NCBI GenBank assembly: GCA_036378375.1
Contig: DASUWQ010000242.1
Span: 1 to 55,746, forward strand
DNA length: 55,746 nt
DNA from: Chthoniobacterales bacterium
GTDB taxonomy: Bacteria; Verrucomicrobiota; Verrucomicrobiia; Chthoniobacterales; JAFAMB01
Direction: 5' to 3'
Below, one piece after another: positions 4,047 to 25,208 of this stretch (the first letter of the stretch is position 1; the number at the start of each line of letters is the position of its first letter). The notes beneath the pieces were generated by a model. That model made no database searches. It saw only the letters and a list, made by a program, of their open reading frames with translations, and was not told the DNA's origin. The translations under genes and the position numbers were made by a program.

Positions 4047-4841
4047 TCACTCCTTCAACGTTTTGTCGATCCATTCTGCGGTTTGGGAGAACACGCTTTG
4101 GACTTGGACATTGATTGGTTCGCCTTCGCGGCTCGTTCCTTCCGGCAAAGTAACGTGAGCGCGTACTCTCACTTCGCCAATCTGAAGAATGTGGTCTCCT
4201 TTAAGGATCGCGTGTTGGCCCGGGGCAACGACTTGATTATCCACGCGGACAATAGAACCAGGATCAGGCGGCAGAACCGCTACCCAATGACTACCGGCGT
4301 TTTGGAAGCGCACGGGTCGCGCGGAAACCCCGGGCAGATCCGTAAATAGCTCAGGTCCTAAAGATCCTTCAGTGCCAAGGGTATCACCATCGGCGCAAGC
4401 GAAGACTTTATCGCCGACCAGGATATCAAGTTGCGCGGTTTCATTTGGCATGCGCTCTGGCATCGGCGCTACCGGAAGGCTCGATCGGAATTTGCCACCG
4501 TACGATTCAAAGATTTCCCGAAAACCAATGACTCCGAAAGTCTCTTCGATCTCAGCGCTTGAGTTCACCACGCAAAGGGTACCGCCTCTGGCCCGCACTC
4601 GTTTTGCCATCGACAGCAATGAACGAAGTATCACACTGCTCACGAAGGAAACGCCGGAGAAATCGATGGCCAAATCGGTCACACCTTTGGTGAGTAAGCG
4701 TTCGACCCAAATGCCCAATTCCCGGTTAAACCGACCAGCTACTTCATCATCAAGCCGCCTGCTGAAAACCAGTACCGGCCGCCCATCTGCAATTTCGACA
4801 GCAACTTCCATAAGATCGATTGGATTCGTAAACCTATGCAA
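4047..4841 (-). CDS. STAS (anti-sigma-antagonist-like) domain protein with C-terminal FHA-like domain
   Basis: The N-terminal half has a SpoIIAA/STAS-like pattern (VLVFSRRLDDEVAGRFNREL..., DFSGVSFVSSVILRSLL, GGTLCVVNSS). The C-terminal half has an FHA-like pattern (GVSARPVRF..., VRVDNQVV, LKGDHILQIGEVRV). Confidence 0.6.
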   Translation of the reverse strand: MHRFTNPIDLMEVAVEIADGRPVLVFSRRLDDEVAGRFNRELGIWVERLLTKGVTDLAIDFSGVSFVSSVILRSLLSMAKRVRARGGTLCVVNSSAEIEETFGVIGFREIFESYGGKFRSSLPVAPMPERMPNETAQLDILVGDKVFACADGDTLGTEGSLGPELFTDLPGVSARPVRFQNAGSHWVAVLPPDPGSIVRVDNQVVAPGQHAILKGDHILQIGEVRVRAHVTLPEGTSREGEPINVQVQSVFSQTAEWIDKTLKE

Positions 4842-4848
4842 AAAAAGC

Positions 4849-4864
4849 GGGCACGGAGATTGAT
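4849..4864 (+). promoter_or_regulatory. Weak candidate sigma-54 (-24/-12) promoter upstream of the export operon
   Basis: GGGCACGGAGATTGAT against the consensus TGGCACG-N4-TTGCW. The GG is present with correct spacing, but the -12 element is TTGA rather than TTGC. It lies 82 nt upstream of the ATG at 4946. Confidence 0.3.
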
Positions 4865-7012: not shown

Positions 7013-8279
7013 TAACGGCGCCAGCGAACGAAGCATCTTTCGGAGAGCCGCCCTCGAGCGCCTATCCTCGCCCGAACAACTTGATTACTTAATGTCGATT
7101 ACGTCGCCGGCCGGCTGGCTGGCGGTCTCGGCGTTAGGAATAATCCTGTTCCTGATCCTACTCTGGGGTTTTCTGGGTAGAATTCCGGACACGGTTACGG
7201 GAAGTGGAATTCTAATTCGGGGAGGTGCCGTGTACGATGTGGCCGCTGCCAACGACGGGTTTGTCACCCAAGTCCTGGTCAAACCCGGGGACGAAGTTAC
7301 CACCGGTCAGATCGTGGCTACGATGAGCCAGTCCGAATTGGAGCTGAAAATCAGGACCCAGGAAGCGCAGCTTAAGCTTTTACAGGCGCAAGACGCGGAT
7401 ATGACCGCAAGAGAAACTAAAAGTGATAGCGCTGCGATTACCGACTACGAAAAGGAAGAGAATGCCATGGAGGCGGCCCAAAAGAGTTATAAGGTTCAGA
7501 TTGACGCTGACCAGATCGAGTTCGACAACCAGTCAAACCTTCTCCAAAAAGGATTAACTACCCAGGCATCGGTAAACAAAGCCAGAGACGCTCTTTATGC
7601 GGTCCAATTACAGGCGGCCGATACGCAAGTAAAGATGAGCGAGATCCGGACCAGTGAGATTAAACTGGTCCGCGAAACCCAAACCCAGCGGAACGCGCGT
7701 CTTAAGGAAATAAATCAAAGCTCCTTGGACTTGAATCAATCCCGAGAAGAACGGGATGCCGGTACTAAAGTCATCTGCCGTTACAGCGGCCGGGTGATTG
7801 AAAAGCTGGTGGAAAGAGGATCTCCCGTCAGCTCCAAGGACAGAATCGTTACGATAGAGGCGGAAGATGCCAAAATGGAGGCGGTCATTTACGTACCAGC
7901 CGGACAAGGAAAAAAGGTGATACCGGGACAGGAAATCCAGATTTCGCCTTCGACGGTGAAGGCGGAGGAATATGGGTTCATCCTGGGAAAGGTTTCAAGC
8001 GTCTCCTACTTTCCGAGCACGCCGGACGGAATGAAAGTGGTTTTACGAAACGACGAACTGGTTAAGGACCTCACATCAAAAGGCGCGCCAATTGAAGTAA
8101 CCGCCGAGCTTTATCCTGACTCGACCACCAAGAGCGGCTACAAATGGTCGTCGTCACAGGGGCCGCCCACAGGTATTTTCAGCGGCACGTTAGCCCAAGC
8201 ATCGATTGTGGTTGAGCGTAAGCCCCCGGTCGAGTTCGTCATTCCAAAAATCAAAGAGATTCTGGGAATCAAGAATTGA
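6963..8279 (+). CDS. HlyD-family membrane fusion/secretion protein (NHLM bacteriocin system secretion-protein type)
   Basis: N-terminal FRRAALERLSSPEQLD followed by a single TM, a long coiled-coil middle and a beta-barrel C-terminus. It overlaps the upstream OMP gene by 50 nt. Confidence 0.85.
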   Translation: MSQTSNTSQAAPPGTSSNGASERSIFRRAALERLSSPEQLDYLMSITSPAGWLAVSALGIILFLILLWGFLGRIPDTVTGSGILIRGGAVYDVAAANDGFVTQVLVKPGDEVTTGQIVATMSQSELELKIRTQEAQLKLLQAQDADMTARETKSDSAAITDYEKEENAMEAAQKSYKVQIDADQIEFDNQSNLLQKGLTTQASVNKARDALYAVQLQAADTQVKMSEIRTSEIKLVRETQTQRNARLKEINQSSLDLNQSREERDAGTKVICRYSGRVIEKLVERGSPVSSKDRIVTIEAEDAKMEAVIYVPAGQGKKVIPGQEIQISPSTVKAEEYGFILGKVSSVSYFPSTPDGMKVVLRNDELVKDLTSKGAPIEVTAELYPDSTTKSGYKWSSSQGPPTGIFSGTLAQASIVVERKPPVEFVIPKIKEILGIKN

Positions 8280-10462
8280 TGAGCGTACCCAGTCTCCCAG
8301 CGGAAGAGCGGCTTCCGGATCGAGTGGTCACCCCAACCTTGTTGCAGATGGAGGCGGTGGAGTGCGGAGCAGCCGCCCTAGGCGTCATTTTTCGCTATCA
8401 CAATCTCTGGATTCCGTTGGAACAACTTCGATTGGAATGCGCCGTCGGCCGGGACGGTAGTAAGGCAAGCAATCTACTCAAAGCGGCCCGCCGATACGGG
8501 ATGGAGGGTCAGGGTATACGCTGCGAACTCGATGCTTTGCTGAAGATGAAGCCGCCGGCGATCCTTTACTGGAATTTTAATCATTTCCTAGTGTATGAAG
8601 GGGTCACCGAGGGTAAGGTTCATCTTAATGATCCTGCGACTGGACCGCGCAGAGTCGCGCTCGAAGAACTTGAAGCTTCCTTTACCGGTGTCGTCCTAAG
8701 TATTCAGCCGGGTCCGAATTTTACCCCGGGCGGAGAAAAGCCGAGCCTCTCGGCTGCCTTGCGCCGGCGGGTTTCCGGTTTCGAAGTCGGCTTGAGTTTC
8801 GCCTTGCTAACCGGACTGTTGCTGATCGTCCCTAACATTGTTAACCCATCGTTCACGCGGGTTTTTATCGATGAATATCTGATCGGCGATAAAACCGAGA
8901 TCTTGCGTCCGCTACTTTCGACGATGGGGGTCTCGATTCTTTTCATGCTCTTCCTGTTCGCCGTGCAAAGGCACTTTCTTTTGCGACTCGAGACTAAGTT
9001 GGCCCTAACTACATCGGCTAAATTCTTCACCCATGTTATCCGGCTGCCGATGGAGTTTTTCTCTCAGCGTTTTGCGGGAGAGATCGGCTCGCGAGTGCTG
9101 ATCAATGACAAGGTAGCGAAGGTGCTGTCCGACAAAATGGTGACCACGGCTCTTGACTTGATGGCGCTCTTTTTTTTCGCCCTGGTGATGCTGCAGTACG
9201 ATGCCTGGCTGACCCTGGCGTGCGTCTCTTTCGCCATGCTCAACCTCCTCGGAGTCAAAATAGTTCAACGCCCGCGAGTTGACGCGAGTTTCCGGCTCCT
9301 GCAAGAGCGAGGAAAACTGATGGGTACTTCGATGAACGGCGTGCAGATGATCGAAACTCTTAAAGCGACCGGCGGCGAAAACGAGTTCTTTTCTCGTTGG
9401 GGAGGCTATCAAGCCAAGACCATTCAGGCCGAACAAGAGATGGATTTTTATGGTCAAAGTCTCTCCGCCGTACCGCCGTTTACCAAGGCCCTAATCACGG
9501 CTACCATCCTAGGGCTAGGCGGTTGGCGAGTCATGGACGGACATCTTACGGTCGGTTTGTTGGTCGCTTTCCAGTCGCTGATGGACGGCTTTACCAGGCC
9601 GATTACTTCGGTTGTGACCTTTGGTAACGTGTTGCAGGAGACCGGTTCTGATCTAAACCGTTTGGATGATGTTCTGCGTTACGAAATAGACTCGGCCTAT
9701 CGACAGGAACATTCAGTCGATACCCGGTTTAACGCGACTATCAAACTCAGCGGTCAACTCGATGTGCACAACCTCACCTTCGGTTTCAACCCGCTGGCGC
9801 CGCCGCTGATTGAGAATCTCAGCTTCAGCATTCGGCCAGGGCACCGGGTGGCGTTAGTTGGTGGAAGTGGGAGTGGTAAGTCCACTGTCTCGAAGCTTGT
9901 TGCCGGGCTTTTTAAGCCCTGGAGTGGAGAGATCCTCTTGGACGGTATGCCCCGAGACAAAATCCCGCCACGGCTTCTGCATAATTCGATCGCGATGGTT
10001 GATCAGGATATTTTCATGTTCGAAGGGACGGTTCGCGACAATCTCACCATGTGGGACACCGGGATACCTGATTTACACATCACGCAAGCCTGCAAGGATG
10101 CCGCCATCGCGGATGTAATCGCTGCCCGTCAAGGAGGCCTGTCGAGCCAAGTCTCGGAGGGTGGAGTTAACTTTTCCGGGGGACAACGTCAACGCCTGGA
10201 GATTGCGCGTTCACTGGTCAATTCACCTAGTCTGCTGATCCTCGATGAGGCCACTAGCGCTCTCGATCCGAGCACGGAAGGAATGATTGATCAGAACCTC
10301 AGGCGGCGTGGTTGCTCTTGTTTAATCGTCGCGCACCGCCTGAGTACGATCCGGGACTGCGATGAAATCATTGTTCTGCAATATGGAAAGGTCGTCGAAC
10401 GGGGAACTCATGAGTCGATGAAGAACAGTGGCGGGCCCTACTCGAGACTGATTAGCCACTAG
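8279..10462 (+). CDS. Bacteriocin/lanthipeptide ABC exporter with N-terminal C39 double-glycine peptidase domain (LanT / NHLM peptidase-ATPase type)
   Basis: C39 catalytic Cys context QMEAVECGAAALGVI, His in NFNHFLVY and Asp in NDP. Six-TM ABC membrane domain, Walker A GGSGSGKST, signature FSGGQRQR and Walker B LLILDEATSALD. The ATG at 8279 shares one nt with the HlyD stop; the ORF-track start at 8276 is TTG. Confidence 0.92.
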   Translation: MSVPSLPAEERLPDRVVTPTLLQMEAVECGAAALGVIFRYHNLWIPLEQLRLECAVGRDGSKASNLLKAARRYGMEGQGIRCELDALLKMKPPAILYWNFNHFLVYEGVTEGKVHLNDPATGPRRVALEELEASFTGVVLSIQPGPNFTPGGEKPSLSAALRRRVSGFEVGLSFALLTGLLLIVPNIVNPSFTRVFIDEYLIGDKTEILRPLLSTMGVSILFMLFLFAVQRHFLLRLETKLALTTSAKFFTHVIRLPMEFFSQRFAGEIGSRVLINDKVAKVLSDKMVTTALDLMALFFFALVMLQYDAWLTLACVSFAMLNLLGVKIVQRPRVDASFRLLQERGKLMGTSMNGVQMIETLKATGGENEFFSRWGGYQAKTIQAEQEMDFYGQSLSAVPPFTKALITATILGLGGWRVMDGHLTVGLLVAFQSLMDGFTRPITSVVTFGNVLQETGSDLNRLDDVLRYEIDSAYRQEHSVDTRFNATIKLSGQLDVHNLTFGFNPLAPPLIENLSFSIRPGHRVALVGGSGSGKSTVSKLVAGLFKPWSGEILLDGMPRDKIPPRLLHNSIAMVDQDIFMFEGTVRDNLTMWDTGIPDLHITQACKDAAIADVIAARQGGLSSQVSEGGVNFSGGQRQRLEIARSLVNSPSLLILDEATSALDPSTEGMIDQNLRRRGCSCLIVAHRLSTIRDCDEIIVLQYGKVVERGTHESMKNSGGPYSRLISH

Positions 10463-10506
10463 CCTGCGTTCTTCAAAAATCCTGAGATTTTTGAAGGACG
10501 CAGGCT
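10461..10506 (+). repeat. 21-bp-stem hairpin starting within the C39-ABC stop codon (AGCCTGC...GCAGGCT family)
   Basis: AGCCTGCGTTCTTCAAAAATC CTGA GATTTTTGAAGGACGCAGGCT, with one G-U position. A second hairpin follows at 10509-10547 (AGGCAGTTAGACA N13 TGTCTAACTGCCT). Confidence 0.8.
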
Positions 10507-10660
10507 ATAGGCAGTTAGACACACGCTCTGCGCCTGTCTAACTGCCTGACTAGAATTATGACTGGAAGACTATTAACGAAACGTTCTACGAGTCTAGCAG
10601 CGGAACGATCCGGCGTAGCCGGAGCATTCTGCTGCCATAGCATGGATCGTAGATAGATCC

Positions 10661-13621
10661 ATGCTGCCTATGCCGCCGGTCGTACCCGTCATCAGTAACG
10701 CTCTCGTCCAAGCCGGAGTGCTTCAGGTACTACGTCTCAATGAATCCTTCGTCATAGAAGGGTCGGACGATATTTGGTACGTCGAATCGGGTAGAGTCGA
10801 ACTGTTCACTGTGCAACTGGAGGACGGAGAAGCAGCCGGACCCCGGTCACATTTCCTTTCTGTTGAGAGTGGTTCTCTCATCTTCGGGATGGATTTTGCC
10901 AAACAGGAACAGGGATACTGTTTTCTGCTCACAGGTCAGGAAGGGACCCAGTTGATCAGGCTGGGCCGAGATCGAGTCAGAAGTCTAGCCAAACACCAGG
11001 AATATGCGGCCGCTATCAGCCAACTTGTGGATCAATGGATCGGTGACCTTTCCAACAGCTTGACTCGCGATGTCAGGCCATTACCCAAAGCAGACGAAGT
11101 TCTGATAGGTGGAAAAGAGGTGCTCCTCCCCCGTGGCAAGATCGCTCGCGCTCGTCGTGGAATCGTTTGGATCCAAGTCGTACGAGGTGAAGCCCTTTAC
11201 CTGGGGATGGAAGGTGTTTCTTTATCCGGCGAAGGAGTACCGTTCCTTCCTCTCTCGCCGGACACCTGGGTGGAATCTTACGATGACAATCTCCTCTCTT
11301 GTTTTTCTACTTCATCGGCTATCACTCAATCGTCATTTTGGTTAGGCCTCTCGCTCTTTCACGAAGTGTTGTGCAAATGCGAGTTCATCAACAAGAAGCT
11401 CAGAATTGTTGACGATTTTAACCGTTTGCGGGCGCGGGAAGCGTCCGGTTTGCGATCACGCGATACCGCTTTGCGCGAAATCGCCTCAGTGCTGGCGACT
11501 AGGCGGGATCGGCAGACGGCAGCCCTGCTCGCTGACCCTTCCGGTAATCCGCTGGTTATCGCCTGTCGACTCGTGGGAGAGGCATCCGGTATTCAAGTCA
11601 AGGTCCCGGCTGATCTTTTTCAAGTCAGCGACAAATTAGGAGCGATCGCGAAAGCTTCCCGGTTCCGTTACCGCACCGTAGCTCTCCGAGGCGAGTGGTG
11701 GGAAATCGATCACGGTCCGCTCTTGGCGTTTCGGGAGGGCACAAACGAACCAGTCGCGATCGTTAAAACAGGGCCGACCACCTACGAGCTAGCGGATCCG
11801 CGCACGGTGGAACGCGTTGCGGTTACTGCTTCGACCGCTGCCACACTCGCTCCCTTCGCCGTTTCCTTCTATACGCCGCTACCGGAAAGGCAGCTGGGTG
11901 CTTGGGACCTGATTAAATTCGGTTTGCGGACTTGTCATGCCGATCTGCGTACTATCAGCCTGATGGGTGTGCTAGTCGGGTTGTTAGGGATGGTAACGCC
12001 CTACTTCAGCGGACAGATTATCGACAGCATTATTCCCGCCGCCGATCGCAGTCAGCTGGCTCAATTTGCCATTGGTCTTTTCGCGGCCGCCTTAGGCACA
12101 TTCGCTTTCGAACTAACTCGTTCGATCGCTGTCCTGCGCCTGACCGGTAAAATGGACTACTCGGTGCAGGCGGGCGTCTGGGACCGGTTACTGAACCTGC
12201 CATCTCAATTCTTTCGCAATTATACGTCTGGCGACCTCACGGACCGGGCATTAGGAGTCGAACAGATTCGGCAGGCGATCTCTCAATCCGGAACTCAAGC
12301 CATCGTCGGCGCTATCAGCACGCTCATCACCGGCATCTTCCTGCTTTCATTCAACGCCAAGATGGCCTGGACCGCGTTCGGTCTTATCGGTTTTTCCGTC
12401 ATCTTACCGCTTTGCATCAACTTGATGCAGCTAAAGAACCAGCGGCAGATGTTCCGCATCCGAGGATTGATCACCGGCTTGGTTCTACAGCTGATAAACG
12501 GGGTCGCTAAAATCCGTGTGTCCGGCGCTGAAGATTCGGCGTTCCGCGAATGGACAAAGAAGTTCTCCGTTCAAAAGCGGCTTTCCTTCCGAGTCGAGTT
12601 TCTTGGCAACATCGTTCAGGTATTCAGCCGGGTTTATCCCGTGATCGCTACCGCTTTGCTGTTCTTTCTATACGGCTGGTTCAAGGATCAGGCCGCCCAG
12701 GGACAAGAGAAATTCAACATGACTACCGGCCAGTTCGTGGCGTTTAACGGCGTATTCACCAACGTACTTTCCAGCATGTTGTCCCTGAGTACGGTCGTGT
12801 TGGATTTATTGATGATATTACCTTTGTTTCAACGACTTCGGCCGGTCATCGAAGCTCAACCGGAAATTGATGAAGCCAAAGCCCATCCCGGCGAACTCAG
12901 CGGTGACTTGGAAGTTTACCATCTCTCGTTCCGGTATAACCAGGATGCACCCCTGATTTTGAAAGATATCTCGCTGCGCATCAGGCCCGGTGAGTTTGTG
13001 GCTCTAGTTGGAGGGTCCGGATCGGGCAAGTCCACCCTCTTGCGGCTATTCCTTGGGTTCGAGAAGCCGGAATCAGGCGCAATTTTTTACGACGGCCAGG
13101 AAGTTTCTTCTTTAGATATCCGTGAAGTCCGCCAACAGATCGGCGTCGTCCTCCAATCCAGCCGGCTAATGCCCACCGATATCTACCGCAACATTATCGG
13201 CTCCCACACCAACCTGACGGTGAATGATGCCTGGGAAGCGGCTAGAATGGCGGGTCTAGACCGGGACATCAAGAATATGCCTATGGGCATGCACACCGTG
13301 GTCTCGGAGGGTGGCGGCACTTTTTCCGGGGGGCAGCGCCAAAGGCTAATGGTTGCGAGAGCACTGGTAAACCGGCCTCGCATTGTCTTTTTTGACGAAG
13401 CGACCAGTGCCATGGACAATGAAACCCAAAGGACAGTCACTGAAAGCTTGGATGCGATGCAGGCGACGCGAATTGTCATCGCGCACCGGCTGAGCACGAT
13501 CATCAATGCGGATCGTATATTCGTGCTGCAAAATGGTGAACTTGTCCAGACCGGGAGTTACACTGAGTTGATGAATCAGGCGGGGCCTTTTGCGGATCTC
13601 GCTAAACGACAGTTGGTTTAA
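10661..13621 (+). CDS. Second ABC exporter subunit with cNMP-binding-like N-terminus and degenerate (Cys-less) C39-like domain (NHLM ATP-binding subunit type)
   Basis: 986 aa. The N-terminal roughly 150 aa has a cyclic-nucleotide-binding-fold pattern (WYVESGRVELFTV...GSLIFGM). The middle region is peptidase-like without the catalytic Cys context. It also has an ABC TMD, Walker A GGSGSGKST, signature FSGGQRQR and Walker B IVFFDEATSAMD. Confidence 0.85.
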   Translation: MLPMPPVVPVISNALVQAGVLQVLRLNESFVIEGSDDIWYVESGRVELFTVQLEDGEAAGPRSHFLSVESGSLIFGMDFAKQEQGYCFLLTGQEGTQLIRLGRDRVRSLAKHQEYAAAISQLVDQWIGDLSNSLTRDVRPLPKADEVLIGGKEVLLPRGKIARARRGIVWIQVVRGEALYLGMEGVSLSGEGVPFLPLSPDTWVESYDDNLLSCFSTSSAITQSSFWLGLSLFHEVLCKCEFINKKLRIVDDFNRLRAREASGLRSRDTALREIASVLATRRDRQTAALLADPSGNPLVIACRLVGEASGIQVKVPADLFQVSDKLGAIAKASRFRYRTVALRGEWWEIDHGPLLAFREGTNEPVAIVKTGPTTYELADPRTVERVAVTASTAATLAPFAVSFYTPLPERQLGAWDLIKFGLRTCHADLRTISLMGVLVGLLGMVTPYFSGQIIDSIIPAADRSQLAQFAIGLFAAALGTFAFELTRSIAVLRLTGKMDYSVQAGVWDRLLNLPSQFFRNYTSGDLTDRALGVEQIRQAISQSGTQAIVGAISTLITGIFLLSFNAKMAWTAFGLIGFSVILPLCINLMQLKNQRQMFRIRGLITGLVLQLINGVAKIRVSGAEDSAFREWTKKFSVQKRLSFRVEFLGNIVQVFSRVYPVIATALLFFLYGWFKDQAAQGQEKFNMTTGQFVAFNGVFTNVLSSMLSLSTVVLDLLMILPLFQRLRPVIEAQPEIDEAKAHPGELSGDLEVYHLSFRYNQDAPLILKDISLRIRPGEFVALVGGSGSGKSTLLRLFLGFEKPESGAIFYDGQEVSSLDIREVRQQIGVVLQSSRLMPTDIYRNIIGSHTNLTVNDAWEAARMAGLDRDIKNMPMGMHTVVSEGGGTFSGGQRQRLMVARALVNRPRIVFFDEATSAMDNETQRTVTESLDAMQATRIVIAHRLSTIINADRIFVLQNGELVQTGSYTELMNQAGPFADLAKRQLV

Positions 13622-13657: not shown

Positions 13658-14803
13658 ATGGATAGTGACGCCGCCAACGTGGTTCCGTTCCCATCTACGG
13701 CTGTCAACCGCAAAATCGACTCCATGTTCACAGATGTCGCCGATCTGGTCCGGGAAAAGTCATCGGAGAAATGGGGCCCAAAGCAGTCGGTGGAACTGGT
13801 CGGTACCAGCCATAAGATGCGGGAAACTCTGGAGAAGGTCCAGAAGTTCGCCAAGTTTAATCAAACCATCTTGATCACCGGAGAGAGTGGTGTCGGCAAA
13901 GAATTGTTTGCTAAAGCCTGTTATCTGTTAAGCCCTCGAATTAAGGCGCCATTCGTGGTCGTAAACTGCCCGCAATATAGCGAGGGCAACGTAACGGTGA
14001 GCGAATTGTTCGGCCATGTGAAAGGCAGCTTTACGGGTGCGATAGCGGACCATAAAGGCTTGTTTAATGCGGCAGAGGGAGGTTTAGTTTTTCTGGATGA
14101 AGTAGGAGACCTGGCTCCAACTGCTCAAACTATGCTTCTCCGGGCGCTCGCGGAGAAGGAGGTGAAACCACTGGGATCCACCCAAACACATTCGGTGGAT
14201 GTTCGGGTGGTTGCCGCAACGAACCGGCCGCTGAGAGACATGATCCAGGCCGGTCAATTTCGGCAGGACCTCTATTTTCGTCTTCGTTACTTTCCGCTGG
14301 AAATCCCGCCTATGCGCGAACGAGAAGACGATTGGAAATTATTAGTTAACTATTTTGTCGATCGGTTAAATCAAGAATACAATCTCAAAAAGGTCTTCTC
14401 ACCGACGTCGATTAAATTCCTGGAACGATATCCATGGCCCGGCAACGTCAGAGAGCTTAAAAGCATCGTTACTATCGGTTTCTCGATGGCCGAAGCGAAA
14501 TACATCGAGCCGGATCACTTCCTTAGCGAGCTTCGCCAAACCAATTTACCGAGTCCCGATACTGGCAAAAACGAACTGTTTGAAAGCATGGTCGAAGGTG
14601 GACGCCCGTTTTGGGATGTCGTTCACGAACCTTTTCTCGAACGGGATTTGAACCGATCTCAAGTACGAGACGTCGTTTCTCAGGGCTTGTTAGCAGCCAG
14701 GGGCAGCTATCGTCGGATGAGCGTCCTCTTCAATATAGGACCGGACCACTATCAAAAGTTCATGGATTTTCTCCGACATCATCGCCTGAAACCCGAGGAG
14801 TGA
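13658..14803 (+). CDS. Sigma-54 enhancer-binding protein without a recognisable N-terminal sensor or receiver domain
   Basis: The AAA+ core begins at about residue 47 (LVGTSHKM), with Walker A GESGVGKE, the GAFTGA-loop variant GSFTGA, Walker B LVFLDEVGDL and WPGNVRELK. A short helical C-terminus follows. Only about 45 aa precede the AAA+ domain. Confidence 0.88.
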   Translation: MDSDAANVVPFPSTAVNRKIDSMFTDVADLVREKSSEKWGPKQSVELVGTSHKMRETLEKVQKFAKFNQTILITGESGVGKELFAKACYLLSPRIKAPFVVVNCPQYSEGNVTVSELFGHVKGSFTGAIADHKGLFNAAEGGLVFLDEVGDLAPTAQTMLLRALAEKEVKPLGSTQTHSVDVRVVAATNRPLRDMIQAGQFRQDLYFRLRYFPLEIPPMREREDDWKLLVNYFVDRLNQEYNLKKVFSPTSIKFLERYPWPGNVRELKSIVTIGFSMAEAKYIEPDHFLSELRQTNLPSPDTGKNELFESMVEGGRPFWDVVHEPFLERDLNRSQVRDVVSQGLLAARGSYRRMSVLFNIGPDHYQKFMDFLRHHRLKPEE

Positions 14804-14892
14804 TTGACGGTAAGGCGGAAAACGCGGCGCGCCCAGGGCGTTGTTTCTCTTTAAAACGATTCCGCGCCGAGTTTTTCGCCCTACCCACTGCA

Positions 14893-14940
14893 AAAATGGA
14901 GCTGTCGTTCCATTTTCGAGAACCGGGGTTCCATTTTCGA
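14893..14940. promoter_or_regulatory. Candidate upstream activator sites: palindrome AAAATGGA-N8-TCCATTTT plus a third TCCATTTT half-site 21 bp downstream
   Basis: The direct repeat GTTCCATTTTCGA occurs at 14907 and 14928, an exact 21-bp phasing. The inverted half-site lies at 14893-14900. The sites are about 85-130 bp upstream of the -24 element at 15021. Confidence 0.4.
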
Positions 14941-15020
14941 AGGGCGTGTCGCAGCAACGCCGAAGAACCGTTTTCTGTAACACCTTGATAATTTGTGCAT
15001 TATAAATCAACAACCGGCTA

Positions 15021-15036
15021 TGGCACGGCCGTTGCT
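15021..15036 (+). promoter_or_regulatory. Sigma-54 (RpoN) -24/-12 promoter
   Basis: TGGCACGGCCGTTGCT matches the consensus TGGCACG-N4-TTGCW at every defined position. It lies 57 nt upstream of the NHLP precursor ATG and directly downstream of an EBP gene. Confidence 0.8.
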
Positions 15037-15092
15037 ATCTACCTTGGCAGATAGGCAAGTGGCTGCAGAGCTCTAATTAACGAGAATTTGCA

Positions 15093-15404
15093 ATGGATCC
15101 TAACTCAACAATCTCACGTAAAGAAATACGGGAGGCACTTGTGAGGGCGGCCTCGAAAGATGAGGCGTTCCGGGAGTCTCTCCTAGCGAACCCAAAGTTC
15201 GCGGTAGAGAGAGCGTTGGGTAAAACCTTACCGGATCACCTGCAGGTCGTTCTCTTACAAGAGACTGACAACCTCATGTATATCGTGCTGCCAAAGGATT
15301 ATCCCGAGGAAGCGGCACATCTTACGGACGCCGAACTCGAAATGGTTGCTGGCGGGTTCCTTAATCCTCAAGCCAACGTGCTGAATATTCAGGACCCCAG
15401 CTAA
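15093..15404 (+). CDS. NHLP (nitrile hydratase-like leader peptide) family RiPP precursor; 88-aa leader ending ELEMVAGG, 15-aa core FLNPQANVLNIQDPS
   Basis: The leader pattern ...ASKDEAFRESLLANPKFAVERALGKTLPDHLQVVLLQETDNLMYIVLPKDYPEE...LTDAELEMVAGG is the typical NHLP architecture with a double-glycine cleavage site. Confidence 0.88.
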   Translation: MDPNSTISRKEIREALVRAASKDEAFRESLLANPKFAVERALGKTLPDHLQVVLLQETDNLMYIVLPKDYPEEAAHLTDAELEMVAGGFLNPQANVLNIQDPS

Positions 15405-15463: not shown

Positions 15464-15598
15464 ATGAGCGAAGAAACCAACAAGCCAGAATCGATTAGCG
15501 ACGAGCAACTCGAAGAGGTTGCCGGCGGCATCAACGATACGACCTCCATTCAAAGCGTCAGCTGCTCCAACGTGTTGAGCACGGTCAACATCGCCTAA
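15464..15598 (+). CDS. lanA: Class II lanthipeptide precursor LanA1 (44 aa): MSEETNKPESISDEQLEEVAGG / INDTTSIQSVSCSNVLSTVNIA
   Basis: My own translation; the gene is below the ORF-track size cutoff. It has a double-glycine leader and a Ser/Thr/Cys-rich core, and lies about 480 nt upstream of lanM. It is one of three paralogs that differ mostly at synonymous sites. Confidence 0.88.
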   Translation: MSEETNKPESISDEQLEEVAGGINDTTSIQSVSCSNVLSTVNIA

Positions 15599-15664: not shown

Positions 15665-15799
15665 ATGAGCGAAGAAACCAACAAACCAGAATCCGTTAGC
15701 GACGAACAACTCGAAGACGTTGCCGGCGGCATCAACGATACCACCTCCATTCAGAGCGTCAGCTGCTCTAACGTGTTGAGCACGGTCAACATCGCCTAA
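15665..15799 (+). CDS. lanA: Class II lanthipeptide precursor LanA2 (44 aa): MSEETNKPESVSDEQLEDVAGG / INDTTSIQSVSCSNVLSTVNIA
   Basis: There are 8 nt differences from LanA1. Six are synonymous and two are conservative leader changes (I11V, E18D). The core is identical. Confidence 0.88.
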   Translation: MSEETNKPESVSDEQLEDVAGGINDTTSIQSVSCSNVLSTVNIA

Positions 15800-15868: not shown

Positions 15869-16003
15869 ATGAGCGAAGAAACCAACAAGCCAGAATCCAT
15901 TAGCGACGAACAACTCGAAGACGTTGCCGGCGGCATCAACGATACGACCTCTATTCAGAGCGTCAGCTGCTCCAACGTGTTGAGCACGATCAACATCGCC
16001 TAA
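15869..16003 (+). CDS. lanA: Class II lanthipeptide precursor LanA3 (44 aa): MSEETNKPESISDEQLEDVAGG / INDTTSIQSVSCSNVLSTINIA
   Basis: There are 6 nt differences from LanA1. Four are synonymous, one is E18D in the leader and one is V to I at core position 19. Confidence 0.88.
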   Translation: MSEETNKPESISDEQLEDVAGGINDTTSIQSVSCSNVLSTINIA

Positions 16004-16046: not shown

Positions 16047-16072
16047 AGCCGCCATCGGTTCCGATGGCGGCT
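16047..16072 (+). promoter_or_regulatory. Intercistronic GC-rich hairpin between lanA3 and lanM (possible attenuator or processing site)
   Basis: AGCCGCCATCGG TT CCGATGGCGGCT, with 12-nt complementary arms and an effective stem of about 10 bp. It ends 4 nt before the lanM ATG at 16077. The downstream U-tract is weak (ACUUAUGU). Confidence 0.5.
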
Positions 16073-16076
16073 ACTT

Positions 16077-19000
16077 ATGTCTACATCCTTAGCTCCCCTT
16101 TCCGCTCGAGCTCGCTATCTCCACGAGCGGTTGGCCGAGCAACCAGCCGGAGTCCCGGCAGCTCCGGAACCCGGAGACGATTTCCGCAATTGGAAGCAGG
16201 TATTCACCGCCGGAACCTATGACCGATTCTCTGCCCGCTTGAGATCGCTTGGTATTTCTGAAGAGCAGGCAGTTTATCTCACCGCAGAGGCGCCTACGTC
16301 CGCGACCCAACAGGATTCATGGGAAGAAGTCCTAAACCAGGCGCTCCAGTATCCCGCTGTCGGTTTGGAGGGGAGTGAGGCATTGCCATTTTCAGTTCTC
16401 TGGCTACCCCTTGTCGCGTTCGCTCGTCAGAACCTATCTCCGTCATCCGGGATCGTAACGGTATCAGCAATCGATTCTTTGCTTCTTTCGCTCCTCCAAG
16501 AGATTTCCGAACTTGCCTCGTTCCCTACTTTCGAGCAATTCTCTCAACACCGGCAGAACGGCGGCAGTTTTGAGACCTTTATCCAAAGCGTTCGCCAAAA
16601 CGATTACCGAATCTTGTTCGAACGATTTCCGGTTTTGGCCCGTCAGATCAGCCATTTGCTCACGTCCTGGATTAGTTCCACTAGCACATTCCTGGAGCGT
16701 CTTCGAACCGACTTTTCTGAGGTAGTCGCTTTAATTCAGTCGGAAAGTCCCTCCCCAAAACTCGTTCGCACAAAAACAGGTATCGCCGATCGGCACGATG
16801 ATGGGAAGCAAGTGATTTTGCTGATTTTCGATGACGGCAAGCAGGTGTTATACAAGCCCAAAGACCTCTCCATCGCTGAAGCGCTCAGTCGAGTTGATCG
16901 CTGGCTTGTTGACGGCGGATTCACCGCGGCTTGGCGCCTGGTGCGCTTCATCAAGCGAGAGGGGTATGGCTGGGAAGAGTTTGTCGAACAATGTCCCTGC
17001 CAAAGCGAGCAGGAAGTCCGGCACTATTACCAAGGCGGTGGAGAGCTTCTCTGTCTGGCATATCTACTGAACGGCTGTGATCTGGGATTCGAGAATGTGA
17101 TTGCTGCAGGCGATCGCCCGGTTCCTATCGACACAGAATCTTTTTTTCACCCTGGACGCGGTAGTGCGAAGTTCGAATCGACACCGGGCACCGCACACAT
17201 TTTCGAACTCGGAAGTCCGTCGGTGATCGAAACCGGTTTGTTGCCCTTCTGGCAGTTAAGCGCCTCTCATGTACCCGCAGACTATTGTGGCCTGGGAAGC
17301 GGCTTTGTCGACCTCTCGCACACTACCGTGATGGAGTGGGAAAATTTGAACTCGAGCCGGATGCGCTCAATCACCAAGCCGCGATCACCGAGGCAAGCCG
17401 GCAACACTGTCCGTTTAGGAAATGAGGTCCAAGATGTGCGGCGCTACCAAGCTGAACTGATAGCCGGGTTTGGCCGGCTATACCATTTCGTCTTAGATCG
17501 GAAAACGGAGTTTCGGCAGCTAATCGGCCAATTCGGCGAAAGCAAGACCAGGTTCGTTTATCGGCCGACTACCCTTTATGGCCTCCTGCTGAAGCAAGCG
17601 CGTTCTCCCAAATGTCTGACCTCTGGCGTACGCCATAGCACGGTTTATGAGCAGCTTTATCGTGTCCCGTTGCGAGACAACGCACTAACACCAGAAACCA
17701 AAAAGTTGATCGACTTCGAGGTTCGGTCGTTGCTCGGCTTGGATATACCGAGATTCCATATTCAACTCAACAGCACGGACTTACTTGGTCAAGATTTCAG
17801 CCTGCCCAATGCGGCCCGAAAGAAGCCGATCGAAGTGGTTTTCGAACGAATCGCTGCAATGGGAGCAGACGATCTCCAGTTTCAAACGGAGGTGATCGAA
17901 GAATCGCTGAGACGCTTTCCAGCGAGTATCAAAAAGCCGTTAACCGGATCGCAGGCCGAGCTAATCGTCCGGCAGTTTGCTACCGAATTAACGCAGCGGA
18001 TCAATAAATCGGAAAGCTCGTTTTTGTGGGATCCACCGACTTATCTGCCGCGCGATCTCAGCGCTGCTCACCGCGAAGGAATCTATCTCGGAGATATGGG
18101 TCCGCTCATTTTTCTCGCGGCGGCAGACCGGCTAACAGGACCAGCTTTCCCGACACGCCAAGCATCGAGGTTCTTGGAAAGGCTAGCTAATTTCGAGCCG
18201 CCTGGTGACTATCCTCCCGGCATTTGCAATGGAGTGGGAGCACTGATTTATGGAGCTTTGGTTCTGGCCAAGCTGACTGGCGACGAAGATTGGACTACGC
18301 TCGCTCTATCGCTGAATAAAAGAGTCAAATTTAGACCGGATAAGGATGAGCCTGACATAATCTCCGGTGTGGCGGGGTTGTTAGTGGCGCTCACGCGACT
18401 TTATCAGGTCACTAGGGACGGCGACGCAGCCGCTAACGCGTTCACCGCCGCTCAGATGTTAGCGGCTCGTTACCATCCCGAACTTGGCTGGCCTAGATCC
18501 GACGGCGATTCTTATGTCGGCTTTGCTCATGGCTTAGCGGGCATAGGTTTTGCCTTGACCCAATATGGTTGCGCTTTCTCCGATCCCCAGTTCAGCGAAA
18601 TCGTTGAGCGCGCGTTCAAGCTGGAGAGAGATCTTTTTGACCCCACAAACAGTTCTTGGCCGATCGCCGTGCGAGGGCCTCAAGGTTCTCTCAATAACTG
18701 GTGCAACGGCACTGCCGGGATTCTCTTAGCCATGGCCGGCGTCCCCACACCACAAAAGCTATCCGGCGACCAGCTGGACGTCATCGTTGAGAAGATCCGC
18801 CACCGAGGCAGCATGGATCACTGGTGTTGCGGGAACTTCGGGATTGCTGAGGTCCTGAGCTATATCGCCACAGAGGAAAATCGCCCTGAAATCCAGACTA
18901 AGAGCGCGGATCTCCTCGAGCAAAGTCTCGAACGGGGCCTGCAAGGAGCGTTCTTCCGTCTTCAACAGAGTGTGGGTGAAAACTTCTGCTTCTCGCCGAG

Positions 19001-19091
19001 TCTGTTCCGAGGAACCTCTGGGATCGGCTATTCGCTGCTGCGTTTTGCGCATCCCGGCGAGCTTCCGTGTATTTTGGCGTTTGAGGTGTAG
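16077..19091 (+). CDS. lanM: Class II lanthipeptide synthetase LanM (N-terminal dehydratase, C-terminal LanC-like cyclase), ProcM-like CCG subtype
   Basis: 1004 aa. The dehydratase motif is DLGFENVIAAGDRPVPIDTESFF. The cyclase motifs are FAHGLAGIG, NNWCNGTAGIL, HWCCGNFGIAE and GTSGIGYSLL. It lies immediately downstream of the precursor genes. Confidence 0.93.
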   Translation: MSTSLAPLSARARYLHERLAEQPAGVPAAPEPGDDFRNWKQVFTAGTYDRFSARLRSLGISEEQAVYLTAEAPTSATQQDSWEEVLNQALQYPAVGLEGSEALPFSVLWLPLVAFARQNLSPSSGIVTVSAIDSLLLSLLQEISELASFPTFEQFSQHRQNGGSFETFIQSVRQNDYRILFERFPVLARQISHLLTSWISSTSTFLERLRTDFSEVVALIQSESPSPKLVRTKTGIADRHDDGKQVILLIFDDGKQVLYKPKDLSIAEALSRVDRWLVDGGFTAAWRLVRFIKREGYGWEEFVEQCPCQSEQEVRHYYQGGGELLCLAYLLNGCDLGFENVIAAGDRPVPIDTESFFHPGRGSAKFESTPGTAHIFELGSPSVIETGLLPFWQLSASHVPADYCGLGSGFVDLSHTTVMEWENLNSSRMRSITKPRSPRQAGNTVRLGNEVQDVRRYQAELIAGFGRLYHFVLDRKTEFRQLIGQFGESKTRFVYRPTTLYGLLLKQARSPKCLTSGVRHSTVYEQLYRVPLRDNALTPETKKLIDFEVRSLLGLDIPRFHIQLNSTDLLGQDFSLPNAARKKPIEVVFERIAAMGADDLQFQTEVIEESLRRFPASIKKPLTGSQAELIVRQFATELTQRINKSESSFLWDPPTYLPRDLSAAHREGIYLGDMGPLIFLAAADRLTGPAFPTRQASRFLERLANFEPPGDYPPGICNGVGALIYGALVLAKLTGDEDWTTLALSLNKRVKFRPDKDEPDIISGVAGLLVALTRLYQVTRDGDAAANAFTAAQMLAARYHPELGWPRSDGDSYVGFAHGLAGIGFALTQYGCAFSDPQFSEIVERAFKLERDLFDPTNSSWPIAVRGPQGSLNNWCNGTAGILLAMAGVPTPQKLSGDQLDVIVEKIRHRGSMDHWCCGNFGIAEVLSYIATEENRPEIQTKSADLLEQSLERGLQGAFFRLQQSVGENFCFSPSLFRGTSGIGYSLLRFAHPGELPCILAFEV

Positions 19092-19344: not shown

Positions 19345-19782
19345 ATGGACCTCACCTACACCCTACAACCCGAGCCGACGCCCGAGGAAAGGTGTCGCAT
19401 CATTGATCCACTAATCGCTTACAACGAGGAAAAAGCAGGGCCGCGAAACTCTAAAGAATTCGCGTTTTCAGTGCATTCGGAGACCGGCGAATTCGTTGGA
19501 GGCTTGTTAGGCTTTACCCACTGGAACCATTTTTTTGTCTCAGCAGTCTTTGTCGACCAGCAATTTCGGAGACAAGGTGTCGGGCGCGAACTCCTGAACC
19601 GCGCAGAAGCATTGGCGCTCCAGCAAGAGTGCGACGTGATCTATTTAGACACTTTCGATTATCAGGCACCCGGGTTCTACGAAAAACTCGGCTTTAAAGT
19701 CTTCGGCACGTTGGAAGACTATCCGCCCGGCCACCGACGTTTCTATTTGGTAAAACGGCTTCGGGGCGCAGAGGGCGCGTAA
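19345..19782 (+). CDS. GNAT-family N-acetyltransferase
   Basis: 145 aa with acetyl-CoA motif A, FRRQGVGRELLNRAE. Confidence 0.8.
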   Translation: MDLTYTLQPEPTPEERCRIIDPLIAYNEEKAGPRNSKEFAFSVHSETGEFVGGLLGFTHWNHFFVSAVFVDQQFRRQGVGRELLNRAEALALQQECDVIYLDTFDYQAPGFYEKLGFKVFGTLEDYPPGHRRFYLVKRLRGAEGA

Positions 19783-24853: not shown

Positions 24854-25208
24854 CCTTGCCGCGAAGCGGCTCTACAGAACAGCCCAGGGCTTTAGCCCTG
24901 GGTCATGCATAGCGCGAAATCGCCCTGAAAGCATCTCCAACCCCGCGGCGGGTGCAATTCGGACGAAGCACATAGATACATTCCAGCCGAAATAGCTGCC
25001 AACAAACCCTTTCGAGGACGAGGACGACGACGAGGATGAGAACGATGTGCCTCACGAGTGGCGACCGACGAACGTCTTGAGATTGCTCGGGTGTTATTCC
25101 ACCGACCGGCCCACAACATCGGGTGCCACTTTCAGGGCACCTTTCGCAAACCACCTGACCCAGGGCTGAAGCCCTGGGCTGTTCTGTAGCGCCGCTTCGC
25201 GGCAAAGG
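24854..25208. repeat. 355-bp element bounded by about 50-bp near-perfect inverted repeats; each arm is itself a hairpin
   Basis: The left arm is CCTTGCCGCGAAGCGGCTCTACAGAACAGCCCAGGGCTTTAGCCCTGGGTCA, and the right arm is its reverse complement with 2 substitutions and 1 indel. Each arm contains the internal palindrome CCCAGGGCT-NN-AGCCCTGGG. The interior carries the GAGGACGAGGACGACGACGAG module. Confidence 0.8.

Follow-up and report, generated by a model that had tools for sequence, protein, structure and literature searches.

The region at 14893-15036 probably forms a complete sigma-54 regulatory module, through whose dyads the adjacent bacterial enhancer-binding protein (EBP) would activate the NHLP-lanA1-3-lanM operon; we put the probability of this reading at about 0.8. 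The module lies in a 55.7-kb stretch of DNA that was analyzed as a whole (the window), and its parts and the surrounding genes are listed in the table.

In the following scheme we infer from the sequence that the EBP binds the dyads, that IHF plays a role, where transcription starts, how far the operon extends and how the EBP is controlled. The module would comprise two activator sites on the same face of the DNA (~-143 and ~-122), an A/T-rich IHF-like bend (~-63) and a consensus -24/-12 promoter, on which sigma-54 RNA polymerase would wait as a closed complex. The C-terminal helical domain of the EBP would contact the TGGA-N8-TCCA dyads, and the protein would assemble into a ring and reach sigma-54 by DNA looping, perhaps with IHF-type bending; ATP hydrolysis, acting through the GSFTGA loop, would then open the promoter. 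Transcription would proceed from ~15047 across the genes of the NHLP precursor, the three LanA peptides and LanM, and probably the GNAT gene. Since the EBP lacks a sensor domain, the level of its activity would depend on the amount made or on a partner protein.

Gene cluster around the module

The window encodes an NHLP bacteriocin system, in which TIGR03793, TIGR03794, TIGR03796 and TIGR03797 all score above their curated cut-offs. The hallmarks of class II lanthipeptide clusters are also present, namely LanM, double-glycine precursors with Ser/Thr and Cys, and a C39-peptidase ABC exporter. The leader of the NHLP precursor ends in ELEMVAGG and is followed by the core FLNPQANVLNIQDPS, which has no Cys; orthologues of this precursor were found. 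The lanA leaders end in EEVAGG before the core INDTTSIQSVSCSNVLSTVNIA, and their match to the CTB bacteriocin leader model is weak and below its cut-off. The export genes are syntenic at all loci with enough sequence, and the EBP gene ends this gene row across a 37-bp gap.

Table. Features of the cluster and of the putative regulatory module (window coordinates; centers are relative to the predicted transcription start)
Feature	Position	Strand	Evidence or remark
HAMP/PAS histidine kinase	94-1950	-	Pfam
NtrC-type response-regulator EBP	2153-3508	-	Pfam; receiver, AAA+, HTH_8
STAS-domain protein	4047-4841	-	Pfam
NHLP bacteriocin export genes	4946-13621	+	Upstream of the EBP gene, same strand
TolC-like outer-membrane protein	4946-7012	+	
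HlyD-type protein	6963-8279	+	TIGR03794
C39-peptidase ABC transporter	8276-10462	+	TIGR03796
ABC transporter	10661-13621	+	TIGR03797
Sensor-less EBP, 381 aa	13658-14803	+	Pfam PF00158 3.9e-60, PF25601
Terminator-like hairpin, then TTCTCTTTAA	14824-14844	+	Consensus scan; just past the EBP stop codon
UAS dyad 1, AAAATGGAGC-TGTC-GTTCCATTTT	14893-14916		Core TGGA-N8-TCCA; center ~-142.5
UAS site 2, imperfect dyad GAGAAC-CGGG-GTTCCA plus second GTTCCATTTTCGA copy	14918-14940		Center ~-121.5
IHF-like site TATCAAGGTGTTA, with perfect WATCAANNNNTTR	14978-14990	-	Between UAS and promoter; center ~-63
Sigma-54 (-24/-12) promoter TGGCACGGCCGTTGCT (TGGCACG-GCCG-TTGCT)	15021-15036	+	Consensus match
Predicted transcription start	15047	+	12 nt past the C of the -12 GC, standard sigma-54 geometry
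Conserved transcript-start block, consensus GCAGACATGCAAGTGGCTGTCGA	15048-15070	+	
NHLP-leader RiPP precursor, 103 aa, first operon gene	15093-15404	+	TIGR03793 1e-20, 73.4 bits (cut-off 50.9)
lanA1-3, three near-identical 44-aa double-glycine-leader precursors	15464-15598, 15665-15799, 15869-16003	+	Translations
Hairpin with 11-bp stem, between lanA3 and lanM	16047-16072	+	
LanM class II lanthipeptide synthetase, 1004 aa	16077-19091	+	TIGR03897 2.3e-171; Pfam DUF4135 and LANC_like
GNAT acetyltransferase	19345-19782	+	Pfam; follows lanM in orthologues, 72-88% identity at syntenic loci

The terminator-like hairpin behind the EBP gene sits within a 23-nt inverted repeat (14809-14831 and 14863-14885) and probably closes the transporter-EBP transcription unit. 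The hairpin before lanM is possibly an attenuator or a transcript-stabilizing structure. A second, NtrC-type EBP with its kinase, as given in the preliminary description, was recovered on the minus strand with the expected domains. The STAS gene is conserved in three related loci (L031, L032 and L029), and the response-regulator EBP recurs in one of them (L032). A two-mismatch sigma-54 site in front of the exporter/EBP operon, GGGCACGGAGATTGAT at 4849-4864, was considered as its promoter and rejected, as it is not conserved in L031 and L032; a sigma-54 cascade linking the NtrC-type regulator to the EBP is therefore without support.

Putative promoter and activator sites, and their conservation

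The match to the -24/-12 consensus, described earlier as complete at every defined position, is indeed perfect for TGGCAC-N5-TTGCW. TGGCAC (15021-15026) and TTGCT (15032-15036) are separated by the spacer GGCCG, and the GG and GC doublets lie 10 nt apart, as the sigma-54 class demands. The site is the sole zero-mismatch match to TGGCACNNNNNTTGCW on both strands of the window, and the sole one-mismatch sigma-54 site is at 40755 on the minus strand. Shuffled 55.7-kb sequences contained 0.07 matches on average, with one or more in 6 of 100 shuffles. The promoter is oriented toward the operon, with 57 nt between it and the ATG, and the predicted start would leave a 5' UTR of 46 nt. Among 24 distinct promoter sites, T1, G2, G3, C4, A5, G14 and C15 carry 2.0 bits each, and spacer positions 8 and 10-12 only 0.1-0.8 bits. 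This information profile reproduces the sigma-54 logo, which indicates selection on the defined positions with the spacer left free.

The preliminary description had also reported a palindrome and a third half-site 21 bp further on, in the geometry of upstream activator sites (UAS). The coordinates proved exact, and footprinting across about 25 related loci bore the geometry out. The half-sites are AAAATGGA (14893-14900), TCCATTTT (14909-14916) and again TCCATTTT (14930-14937), so that the spacing from 14909 to 14930 is 21 bp. However, the third element, although present at that distance, is not a lone half-site but part of the second copy of a longer 13-nt direct repeat, GTTCCATTTTCGA, found 100% identical at 14907-14919 and 14928-14940, 21 bp apart. 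It would more plausibly form the right arm of an additional dyad, which is imperfect and offset from dyad 1 by 21 bp or two helical turns. Within this site, CGAGAA and GTTCCATTTT are conserved in orthologues, and at the corresponding position a related locus (L033) carries a pair of complete TGGA-N8-TCCA dyads separated by 21 bp.

In the window, the AAAATGGA-N8-TCCATTTT dyad occurs once; AATGGA-N8-TCCATT has one perfect match, every other match has at least two mismatches, and no further UAS-like dyad with fewer than two was found elsewhere. The 8-mer TCCATTTT is present in 9 copies against 2.5 expected, the remaining six being isolated half-sites. Dyad 1 is nearly invariant among 21 distinct orthologous sequences, and its TGGA-N8-TCCA core is retained at loci whose EBP is 53-74% identical. 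Dyad symmetry, a place 80-150 bp upstream, helical-turn phasing and conservation together with the regulator, the properties of upstream activator sites, are thus all found here. Between these sites and the promoter, the IHF-like site recurs with at most one mismatch, at either of two fixed positions, in 15 of 24 loci, compared with a roughly estimated chance of ~0.06 per locus. The TAA (14978-80) and TT (15000-01) around it are invariant in orthologues, and an IHF/HU-type protein may bind at 14978-14990.

The elements recur in many soil Verrucomicrobiota: in every related locus whose sequence extends downstream past the EBP gene (23 loci), dyad, repeat and promoter are present at fixed offsets, with half-sites near -126, -112 and -91 relative to the promoter; such locus counts overstate the number of independent events because the loci are phylogenetically related. 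Meanwhile, the distance from the EBP stop codon to the UAS varies from 6 to ~500 bp, the intergenic DNA around the elements diverges, and the aligned columns of the region average only 69% identity. A search for the strict promoter pattern in the 55.7-kb window and the fetched loci (~390 kb) gave 32 sites; 31 of these have UAS half-site motifs within 150 bp upstream, 30 of the 31 at the fixed offsets. In addition, the whole module has been duplicated before a second precursor gene set in three lineages (L003, L012/L014 and L022-24). Relatives with an EBP of only 53-60% identity (Chthoniobacter, Verrucomicrobiales) still place it within NHLP/LanM clusters; the NHLP gene there is preceded by TGGA-N8-TCCA dyads and a GG-N10-GC promoter, and the sensor-less EBP is the only EBP within the fetched 5-9 kb flanks. 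Footprinting across the ~25 related loci and the persistence of the same logic in distant relatives agree with the earlier proposal that the promoter is placed to drive the precursor/lanM operon. In one locus (L032), the exporter and the EBP are kept and no RiPP operon, dyads or promoter stand beside them; therefore, the EBP may have other targets, or this locus may have lost its payload.

These patterns bear on the possibility that the sigma-54 match is a chance look-alike and that operon transcription depends on an ordinary housekeeping-sigma promoter or on read-through out of the EBP gene. The odds of one perfect match somewhere in the window are ~6%, and Verrucomicrobial housekeeping promoters are poorly defined and could be missed. 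However, conservation follows the sigma-54 logo at each position, strict matches in the ~390 kb of fetched loci and the window are practically limited to this setting, and the module is duplicated intact. A consensus scan found no plus-strand sigma-70-like site between the EBP gene and the operon, and the terminator-like hairpin after the EBP gene also speaks against read-through. We consider a chance match very improbable.

The transcript-start block at 15048-15070 is kept in orthologues and in duplicated modules, regardless of the downstream gene. RNA structure in this block was considered and rejected (RNAalifold -2.7 kcal/mol, no compensatory changes or covariation), and Rfam gave no match in or near the promoter/UAS region. 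Small ORFs over the intergenic region (e.g., 14611-14988 on the plus strand and 14690-15013 on the minus strand) were dismissed because the conservation consists of short blocks split by divergent, indel-rich DNA. Pfam scans of the larger ORFs of the window revealed no rpoN. The two EBP genes with intact sigma-54-contact loops in the window are indirect support for rpoN in the genome.

The sensor-less EBP and its putative binding of the dyads

Relatives of the EBP were gathered by homology search; its exact sequence has no database record, and no NCBIfam equivalog attains its cut-off for it (TIGR02974, 218 bits against 443). The AAA+ sigma-54 interaction domain spans residues 47-214, followed by the AAA lid (220-299) and a five-helix C-terminal domain (~304-374). 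The view that this EBP lacks a sensor holds, as Sigma54_activat begins at residue 47 with no N-terminal domain before it, and none of the 34 aligned family members has an N-terminal sensor or regulatory domain. The ~46 residues ahead of the AAA+ domain comprise a segment predicted to be disordered (1-21) and a short conserved helix (26-39), with A28, W39 and G40 nearly invariant. Walker A (GESGVGKE), Walker B (DE), the G[AS]FTGA loop and the R-finger arginines are invariant in the 34-sequence alignment; the loop of the window EBP, GSFTGA, is a conservative variant of the GAFTGA sigma-54 contact loop. The AlphaFold model (pLDDT 86) matches FlrC, NtrC1, FleQ and PspF over the AAA+ domain with Foldseek E-values of 1e-24 to 1e-27 and target-normalized TM scores of 0.88-0.94. 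The EBP has an intact AAA+ core with its catalytic motifs and, in the predicted model, the fold of solved EBPs.

The basic C-terminal domain shows strong conservation and a confident predicted fold (pLDDT 91), and sits where EBPs carry their DNA-binding domains. It has no Pfam match at E<=1, HTH_8 included, and no PDB sequence match; Foldseek places Fis and the NtrC DNA-binding domain at E ~9 (TM 0.35-0.42), and hhalign aligns it with Fis-type HTHs in the expected register at 6% probability, none of which is significant. A Fis/HTH_8 assignment is not supported by these comparisons. Because no Fis-type HTH is recognizable, DNA binding by this domain is what we infer rather than read from a known family.

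This makes it necessary to consider that the sigma-54 promoter is real and that another protein binds the dyads, either the NtrC-type regulator with its kinase or a repressor, the adjacent EBP acting from solution or at other targets. EBPs that lack a DNA-binding domain and act from solution are known, such as Chlamydia CtcC and Helicobacter FlgR. The missing recognizable HTH of the adjacent EBP would fit such a case, and the NtrC-type regulator has a canonical HTH_8 and recurs beside the cluster in L032. However, L032 has the NtrC-type gene and neither dyads nor promoter, whereas L028, L029, L033 and L035 share the dyad-promoter logic with no second EBP in the fetched 5-9 kb flanks. In addition, the C-terminal domain of the adjacent EBP is about as conserved as the TGGA/TCCA core. 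Binding of the dyads by another protein is unlikely, and binding by the adjacent EBP is preferred.

How that EBP is itself controlled is a refinement of the main model. It is possible, though we lean against it, that the EBP is restrained by a partner in trans, as PspF is by PspA, or answers the exported peptides; candidate partners are the STAS protein and, in other lineages, a DUF7005 protein. The absence of a sensor domain in 34 of 34 family members and the conserved helix 26-39 are consistent with a partner, in L029 and L033 a DUF7005 gene is directly adjacent to the EBP gene or overlaps it, and the STAS gene is conserved beside the cluster. However, no DUF7005 or PspA-like gene was found among the scanned window genes, and control purely by the amount of EBP fits the data equally. 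Decidedly more speculative, and improbable as a whole, is a wider model in which dyads, bend and sigma-54 promoter form a portable, lineage-wide cassette that, with the sensor-less EBP carrying the unclassified, presumably DNA-binding domain, would be the dedicated on-switch of NHLP/LanM clusters in Verrucomicrobiota. The switch would be closed into a sigma-54-based autoinduction loop governing lanthipeptide production, the conserved, Cys-free NHLP peptide being exported by the C39 transporter and sensed via the kinase/NtrC-type pair or the STAS protein.

Comparison with known systems and implications

The arrangement, with its pair of activator sites, IHF-like site and -24/-12 promoter, resembles that of PspF and the pspA promoter in E. 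coli, where tandem UAS and an IHF site accompany a sigma-54 promoter; the window EBP likewise starts almost directly with the AAA+ domain, and its fold matches PspF (2c98, 2c9c). However, PspF has a Fis-type HTH, whereas the C-terminal domain here matches no known family. No PspA-like gene is present among the scanned window genes, TIGR02974 stays below its cut-off, and the target is a RiPP biosynthetic operon instead of a membrane-stress operon. NtrC at glnAp2 binds as dimers to two sites on one DNA face, which nucleate the activator ring. The module shares with it two dyad-type sites that are spaced by whole helical turns (21 bp) and lie over 100 bp upstream of a sigma-54 promoter, but differs in the lack of receiver/phosphorylation control, in the recognition sequence TGGA-N8-TCCA and in a site 2 that is half-degenerate in this clade.

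As in LanRK systems (NisRK, SpaRK), a cluster-encoded positive regulator appears to drive the precursor and modification operon. Systems of the NisRK/SpaRK type use OmpR-type response regulators, housekeeping-sigma promoters and the mature peptide as inducer; in contrast, the system described here differs in promoter class, in activator class (AAA+ ATPase) and in the absence of a sensor. The EBPs that control natural products in Myxococcus xanthus are global developmental regulators, whereas this EBP is cluster-encoded and apparently pathway-specific, belongs to another phylum and concerns a ribosomal peptide. In M. xanthus, polyketide and non-ribosomal peptide genes are directly under EBP-activated sigma-54 promoters (PMC7910581), and lanthipeptides, lantibiotics, bacteriocins and ribosomal peptides go unmentioned in that paper. 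The cluster agrees with the NHLP/NHLM systems of Haft et al. 2010 (PMC2887384) in having all four defining families; the words sigma, regulator and transcription are absent from this founding NHLP paper, and the EBP and its promoter module are an additional feature of the Verrucomicrobiota systems described here.

Our literature searches gave no paper tying sigma-54 or EBPs to lanthipeptide or NHLP clusters, in line with the earlier remark that such control is unusual for lanthipeptide operons. The module would extend sigma-54 control from the polyketide/non-ribosomal peptide clusters of myxobacteria to ribosomal peptides and to another phylum. Lanthipeptide and NHLP-type clusters of uncultured soil Verrucomicrobiota are usually silent or inaccessible, and a two-part switch of one small EBP gene and a ~150-bp module would offer a direct route to turning them on. 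Because the promoter fits the general consensus, co-expression of the EBP could be feasible in any sigma-54 host, such as E. coli or Pseudomonas. The C-terminal domain, absent from Pfam models, is likely a new DNA-binding module with TGGA-N8-TCCA as its candidate recognition sequence. It is represented by 826 representative clusters and is present also in long EBPs of Acidobacteriota.

Predicted sigma-54 promoter and upstream activator sites

The region encodes an NHLP-type bacteriocin system; its genes and regulatory elements are collected in the table. The -24/-12 promoter that the preliminary description placed ahead of the NHLP-lanA1-3-lanM operon has the sequence claimed for it and lies 57 nt before the operon's first ATG. 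No other sequence in the 55.7-kb window matches TGGCAC-N5-TTGCW without a mismatch, and allowing one mismatch adds one site (40755, minus strand); shuffled sequences gave a mean of 0.07 matches, with any match in 6 of 100 shuffles. No sigma-70-like site was found on the plus strand between the operon and the adjacent gene for a sigma-54 enhancer-binding protein (EBP). Among 24 distinct promoter sequences, T1, G2, G3, C4, A5, G14 and C15 carry 2.0 bits of information, positions 6, 7, 13 and 16 carry 1.2-1.6 bits, and spacer positions 8 and 10-12 carry 0.1-0.8 bits. Judged from this alignment, the profile is a sigma-54 logo, distinct from generic conservation.

The palindrome noticed in the same description is a perfect 8-nt inverted repeat with a gap of 8 nt; the dyad AATGGA-N8-TCCATT is unique in the window, every other match having at least two mismatches. 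The third half-site also stands, as a further right arm 21 bp on, and is refined here in that it belongs to a 13-nt direct repeat. Because the second repeat copy follows a conserved GAGAA(C/T)-N4, it may be regarded as the right half of another, imperfect dyad (GAGAAC-CGGG-GTTCCA), spaced 21 bp from the perfect one. Between these upstream activator sites (UAS) and the promoter lies an IHF-like bend site. Such a site, with at most one mismatch and at one of two fixed positions, occurs in 15 of 24 loci (roughly estimated chance rate ~0.06 per locus), and the TAA and TT on its flanks do not vary among the loci. It is plausible from these patterns that an IHF/HU-type protein acts there.

Features of the bacteriocin region and its surroundings
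Feature	Position	Strand	Details
NtrC-type EBP	2153-3508	-	second EBP of the window
STAS-domain protein	4047-4841	-	264 aa; divergent from exporter operon
TolC-like outer-membrane protein	4946-7012		
NHLP export protein	6963-8279		TIGR03794, above curated cut-off
NHLP export protein	8276-10462		TIGR03796, above curated cut-off
NHLP export protein	10661-13621		TIGR03797, above curated cut-off
Sensor-less EBP	13658-14803	+	381 aa
EBP C-terminal domain	14555-14800		residues 300-381
Terminator-like hairpin	14824-14844		after EBP stop codon
Dyad, left arm	14893-14900		AAAATGGA
Dyad, right arm	14909-14916		TCCATTTT
Direct repeat, first copy	14907-14919		GTTCCATTTTCGA
Direct repeat, second copy	14928-14940		GTTCCATTTTCGA
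Third half-site	14930-14937		TCCATTTT
IHF-like bend site	14978-14990	-	TATCAAGGTGTTA, perfect WATCAANNNNTTR
Sigma-54 promoter	15021-15036	+	TGGCACGGCCGTTGCT
Predicted transcription start	near 15047		
Conserved block	15048-15070		consensus GCAGACATGCAAGTGGCTGTCGA
NHLP-leader precursor	15093-15404		TIGR03793
Three double-glycine precursors			44 aa, nearly identical; between NHLP precursor and LanM
Hairpin	16047-16072		lanA3-lanM gap; 11-bp stem AGCCGCCATCGG-TTCC-GATGGCGGCT
LanM	16077-19091		TIGR03897, 2.3e-171
Small GNAT acetyltransferase	19345-19782		after lanM
Acido-Lenti-1 RNA motif	24857-24902	-	RF01687
Acido-Lenti-1 RNA motif	25159-25204	+	RF01687

Standard sigma-54/EBP activation of the NHLP-lanA1-3-lanM(-GNAT) operon is the most likely account (probability about 0.8), with the EBP as the predicted ligand of the dyads. 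EBP dimers would bind two same-face sites, with centres near -143 and -122, and form a ring, which DNA bending would carry to the sigma-54 holoenzyme at -24/-12; ATP hydrolysis would then open the promoter and allow the operon to be transcribed. According to the usual geometry of sigma-54 promoters, the transcript would begin one nucleotide before a conserved block, which is retained whatever gene follows, also in duplicated modules. No support was found for RNA structure in this block, and it could be an operator or an initial-transcribed-region element. The strong hairpin between lanA3 and lanM has no T-tract; it is possibly an attenuator or a processing/stability element, and may tune the precursor-to-enzyme ratio.

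Conservation of the module among related loci

The comparison covered 25 close loci from genome and metagenome collections (EBP 76-95% identical) and ten further loci obtained by exact-protein look-ups of more distant EBP homologues. The module of UAS and promoter is present in 23/23 close loci having sequence downstream of the EBP gene, with half-sites about 126, 112 and 91 nt ahead of the T of TGGCAY-N5-YTGCT and a distance of 6 to ~500 bp between the EBP stop codon and the UAS. The remaining intergenic DNA is poorly conserved (69% mean column identity), and the invariant columns fall mostly at the UAS and the -24/-12 elements, with a few intervening A/T positions. The strict promoter pattern occurs 32 times in the fetched loci (~390 kb) and the window; 31 of these have UAS half-site motifs in the 150 bp before them, and in 30 of the 31 the motifs are at the fixed offsets. 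In three lineages the module occurs twice (L003, 7435 and 8539; L012, 4604 and 6492, with L014; L022, 6707 and 7763, with L023 and L024), one copy preceding an inserted series of 42-aa lanA genes and the other the NHLP gene; the spacing inside the copies is identical. L012 also holds a decayed third copy at about 5090-5160. Thus, the module acts as a single unit that accompanies precursor genes. The loci share ancestry, so their number overstates the independent support; the module duplications, and the way conserved blocks stand out from divergent flanks, are independent of how many loci are counted. Comparative genomics gives solid support to the sigma-54 module as a sequence element.

A diverged version of the module is retained in L026 (EBP 74% identical). 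L028 (EBP 60%) carries ATATGGAGC-GACA-GCTCTATTC ~105 bp upstream of TGGCACATGCGTTGCT, with precursor genes and lanM downstream, and the Chthoniobacter MAG locus L029 (EBP 54%) carries AAATGGAGCC-GG-GCCTCCAAAAT and TGGCACGAGCCAAGCT upstream of the NHLP gene and lanM. In L033, from Verrucomicrobiales (EBP 55%), a pair of full TGGA-N8-TCCA dyads spaced by 21 bp is followed by TGGCACGCGGCTAGCA, upstream of the NHLP gene; in L035 (EBP 54%), at a distance of 8 kb from the EBP gene, TGGAGCC-GT-GGCTCCA and TGGCATATGCCGTGCG precede NHLP-lanM. Within the fetched flanks (5-9 kb) of these loci no EBP other than the sensor-less one occurs, which argues for it, rather than the NtrC-type protein, as the cognate activator. 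L032 (EBP 73%; 10001-11196) keeps the STAS, exporter and EBP genes, with fatty-acid degradation genes directly after the EBP gene; no RiPP operon, dyads or sigma-54 promoter were found downstream of the latter, and the payload is either lost or located elsewhere.

The sensor-less activator and its control

The EBP beside the promoter had been described as sensor-less, and Pfam indeed finds no N-terminal domain in it. Residues 47-214 form a full sigma-54 interaction domain (PF00158, 3.9e-60), an AAA lid is present, and HTH_8 was not found by Pfam. In an alignment of 34 sequences (52-97% identity), the Walker A GESGVGKE, the Walker B DE, G[AS]FTGA (GSFTGA in the sigma-54 contact loop of the window EBP) and the arginine fingers are invariant, and the N-terminal 25-45 residues vary in sequence and length except for one short helix. 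The AlphaFold model (pLDDT 86) has residues 1-21 disordered, and its AAA+ core resembles FlrC, NtrC1, FleQ and PspF (target-normalised TM 0.88-0.94). The window derives from a soil verrucomicrobial genome; the closest EBP homologues and all four genome matches are Verrucomicrobiota MAGs.

The last ~70 residues form a predicted five-helix domain (pLDDT 91 modelled alone) with many invariant basic and aromatic residues. Searches of this domain gave no Pfam family at E<=1, no match among PDB sequences and no significant Foldseek match (for Fis and the DNA-binding domain of NtrC, E was about 9); hhalign placed it against Fis-type HTHs in the expected register at 6% probability. It represents a sizeable unmodelled family, to which 826 representative clusters belong at E<=0.001, and also forms the C-terminus of sigma-54 activators of far greater length, among them one of 1650 aa from Acidobacteriota and a TPR-containing one of 743 aa. 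From its position and conservation, we take it to be a putative DNA-binding domain.

The element fits squarely within the sigma-54 promoter/UAS/EBP class. Closest in layout are PspF/pspA, with a sensor-less EBP, tandem sites and IHF, and NtrC/glnAp2, with two phased dyads. The EBP is not regarded as a PspF orthologue, since its score falls short of the equivalog cut-off, its C-terminal domain is different and no PspA partner was seen among the scanned genes of the window. How a family without a sensor domain is controlled leads to its neighbours. No conserved sigma-54 promoter was found ahead of the exporter/EBP genes, so a cascade from the NtrC-type regulator to the EBP is without support. 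The STAS protein is a candidate EBP partner: its gene is kept beside the cluster in L031 (78-842), L032 (401-1183) and L029 (16420-17140), and adjoins an NtrC-type response regulator in the window and in L032; its C-terminal ~140 aa have no Pfam match. A DUF7005 (PF22541) gene, absent from the window, overlaps or directly follows the EBP gene in L029 (9137-10276), L033 (10188-11309) and L034 (13960-15060), and its product is a candidate EBP partner in other lineages or a candidate further biosynthetic protein.

Lantibiotic operons are usually described under OmpR-type two-component systems. The preliminary description did not count RpoN control as usual for lanthipeptide operons, and our literature search likewise gave no paper in which lanthipeptide or NHLP clusters are tied to sigma-54 or EBPs. 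The founding NHLP paper (PMC2887384) does not discuss regulation. Myxococcus polyketide and non-ribosomal peptide clusters are under sigma-54 control (PMC7910581), and sigma-54 regulators have been noted to be enriched in Acidobacteriota BGCs (PMC13642348). The practical value of the module is as a route to activating silent clusters.

Precursors, payload and flanking RNA motifs

The NHLP precursor core after the GG site, FLNPQANVLNIQDPS, contains no cysteine, so a lanthionine ring cannot form. The Cys-free FLSA[DE]xN...DP.. core is retained in the orthologues (L001-L031), and Cys is present in the precursors of the more distant L019, L029 and L035. The product may be a signalling or other non-lanthipeptide molecule.

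In L001-L031, LanM is 34-91% and LanA 49-98% identical where the EBP is 81-95% and the exporters 76-100% identical and the promoter module is conserved; the NHLP leader, at the same loci as these LanM values, is 66-100% conserved (73-100% without L019). Turnover of the payload is thus far quicker than that of the platform, a pattern suggesting that lanA/lanM are exchanged cassette-like under a fixed regulatory and export scaffold. The GNAT after lanM is 72-88% conserved in orthologues, and that of the Chthoniobacter locus is longer (306 aa). In what PMC8784127 describes of lipopeptides, GNATs acylate NHLP/Nif11-type RiPPs; therefore, by analogy, an N-acylated product of the window cluster is possible.

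The two copies of the Acido-Lenti-1 RNA motif score 38.8 and 51.1 bits (gathering score, 37) and sit inverted, ~250 bp apart, between the genes for transaldolase and a DAC-domain protein. The motif takes its name from Acidobacteria and Lentisphaerae; the host genome here belongs to Verrucomicrobiota.
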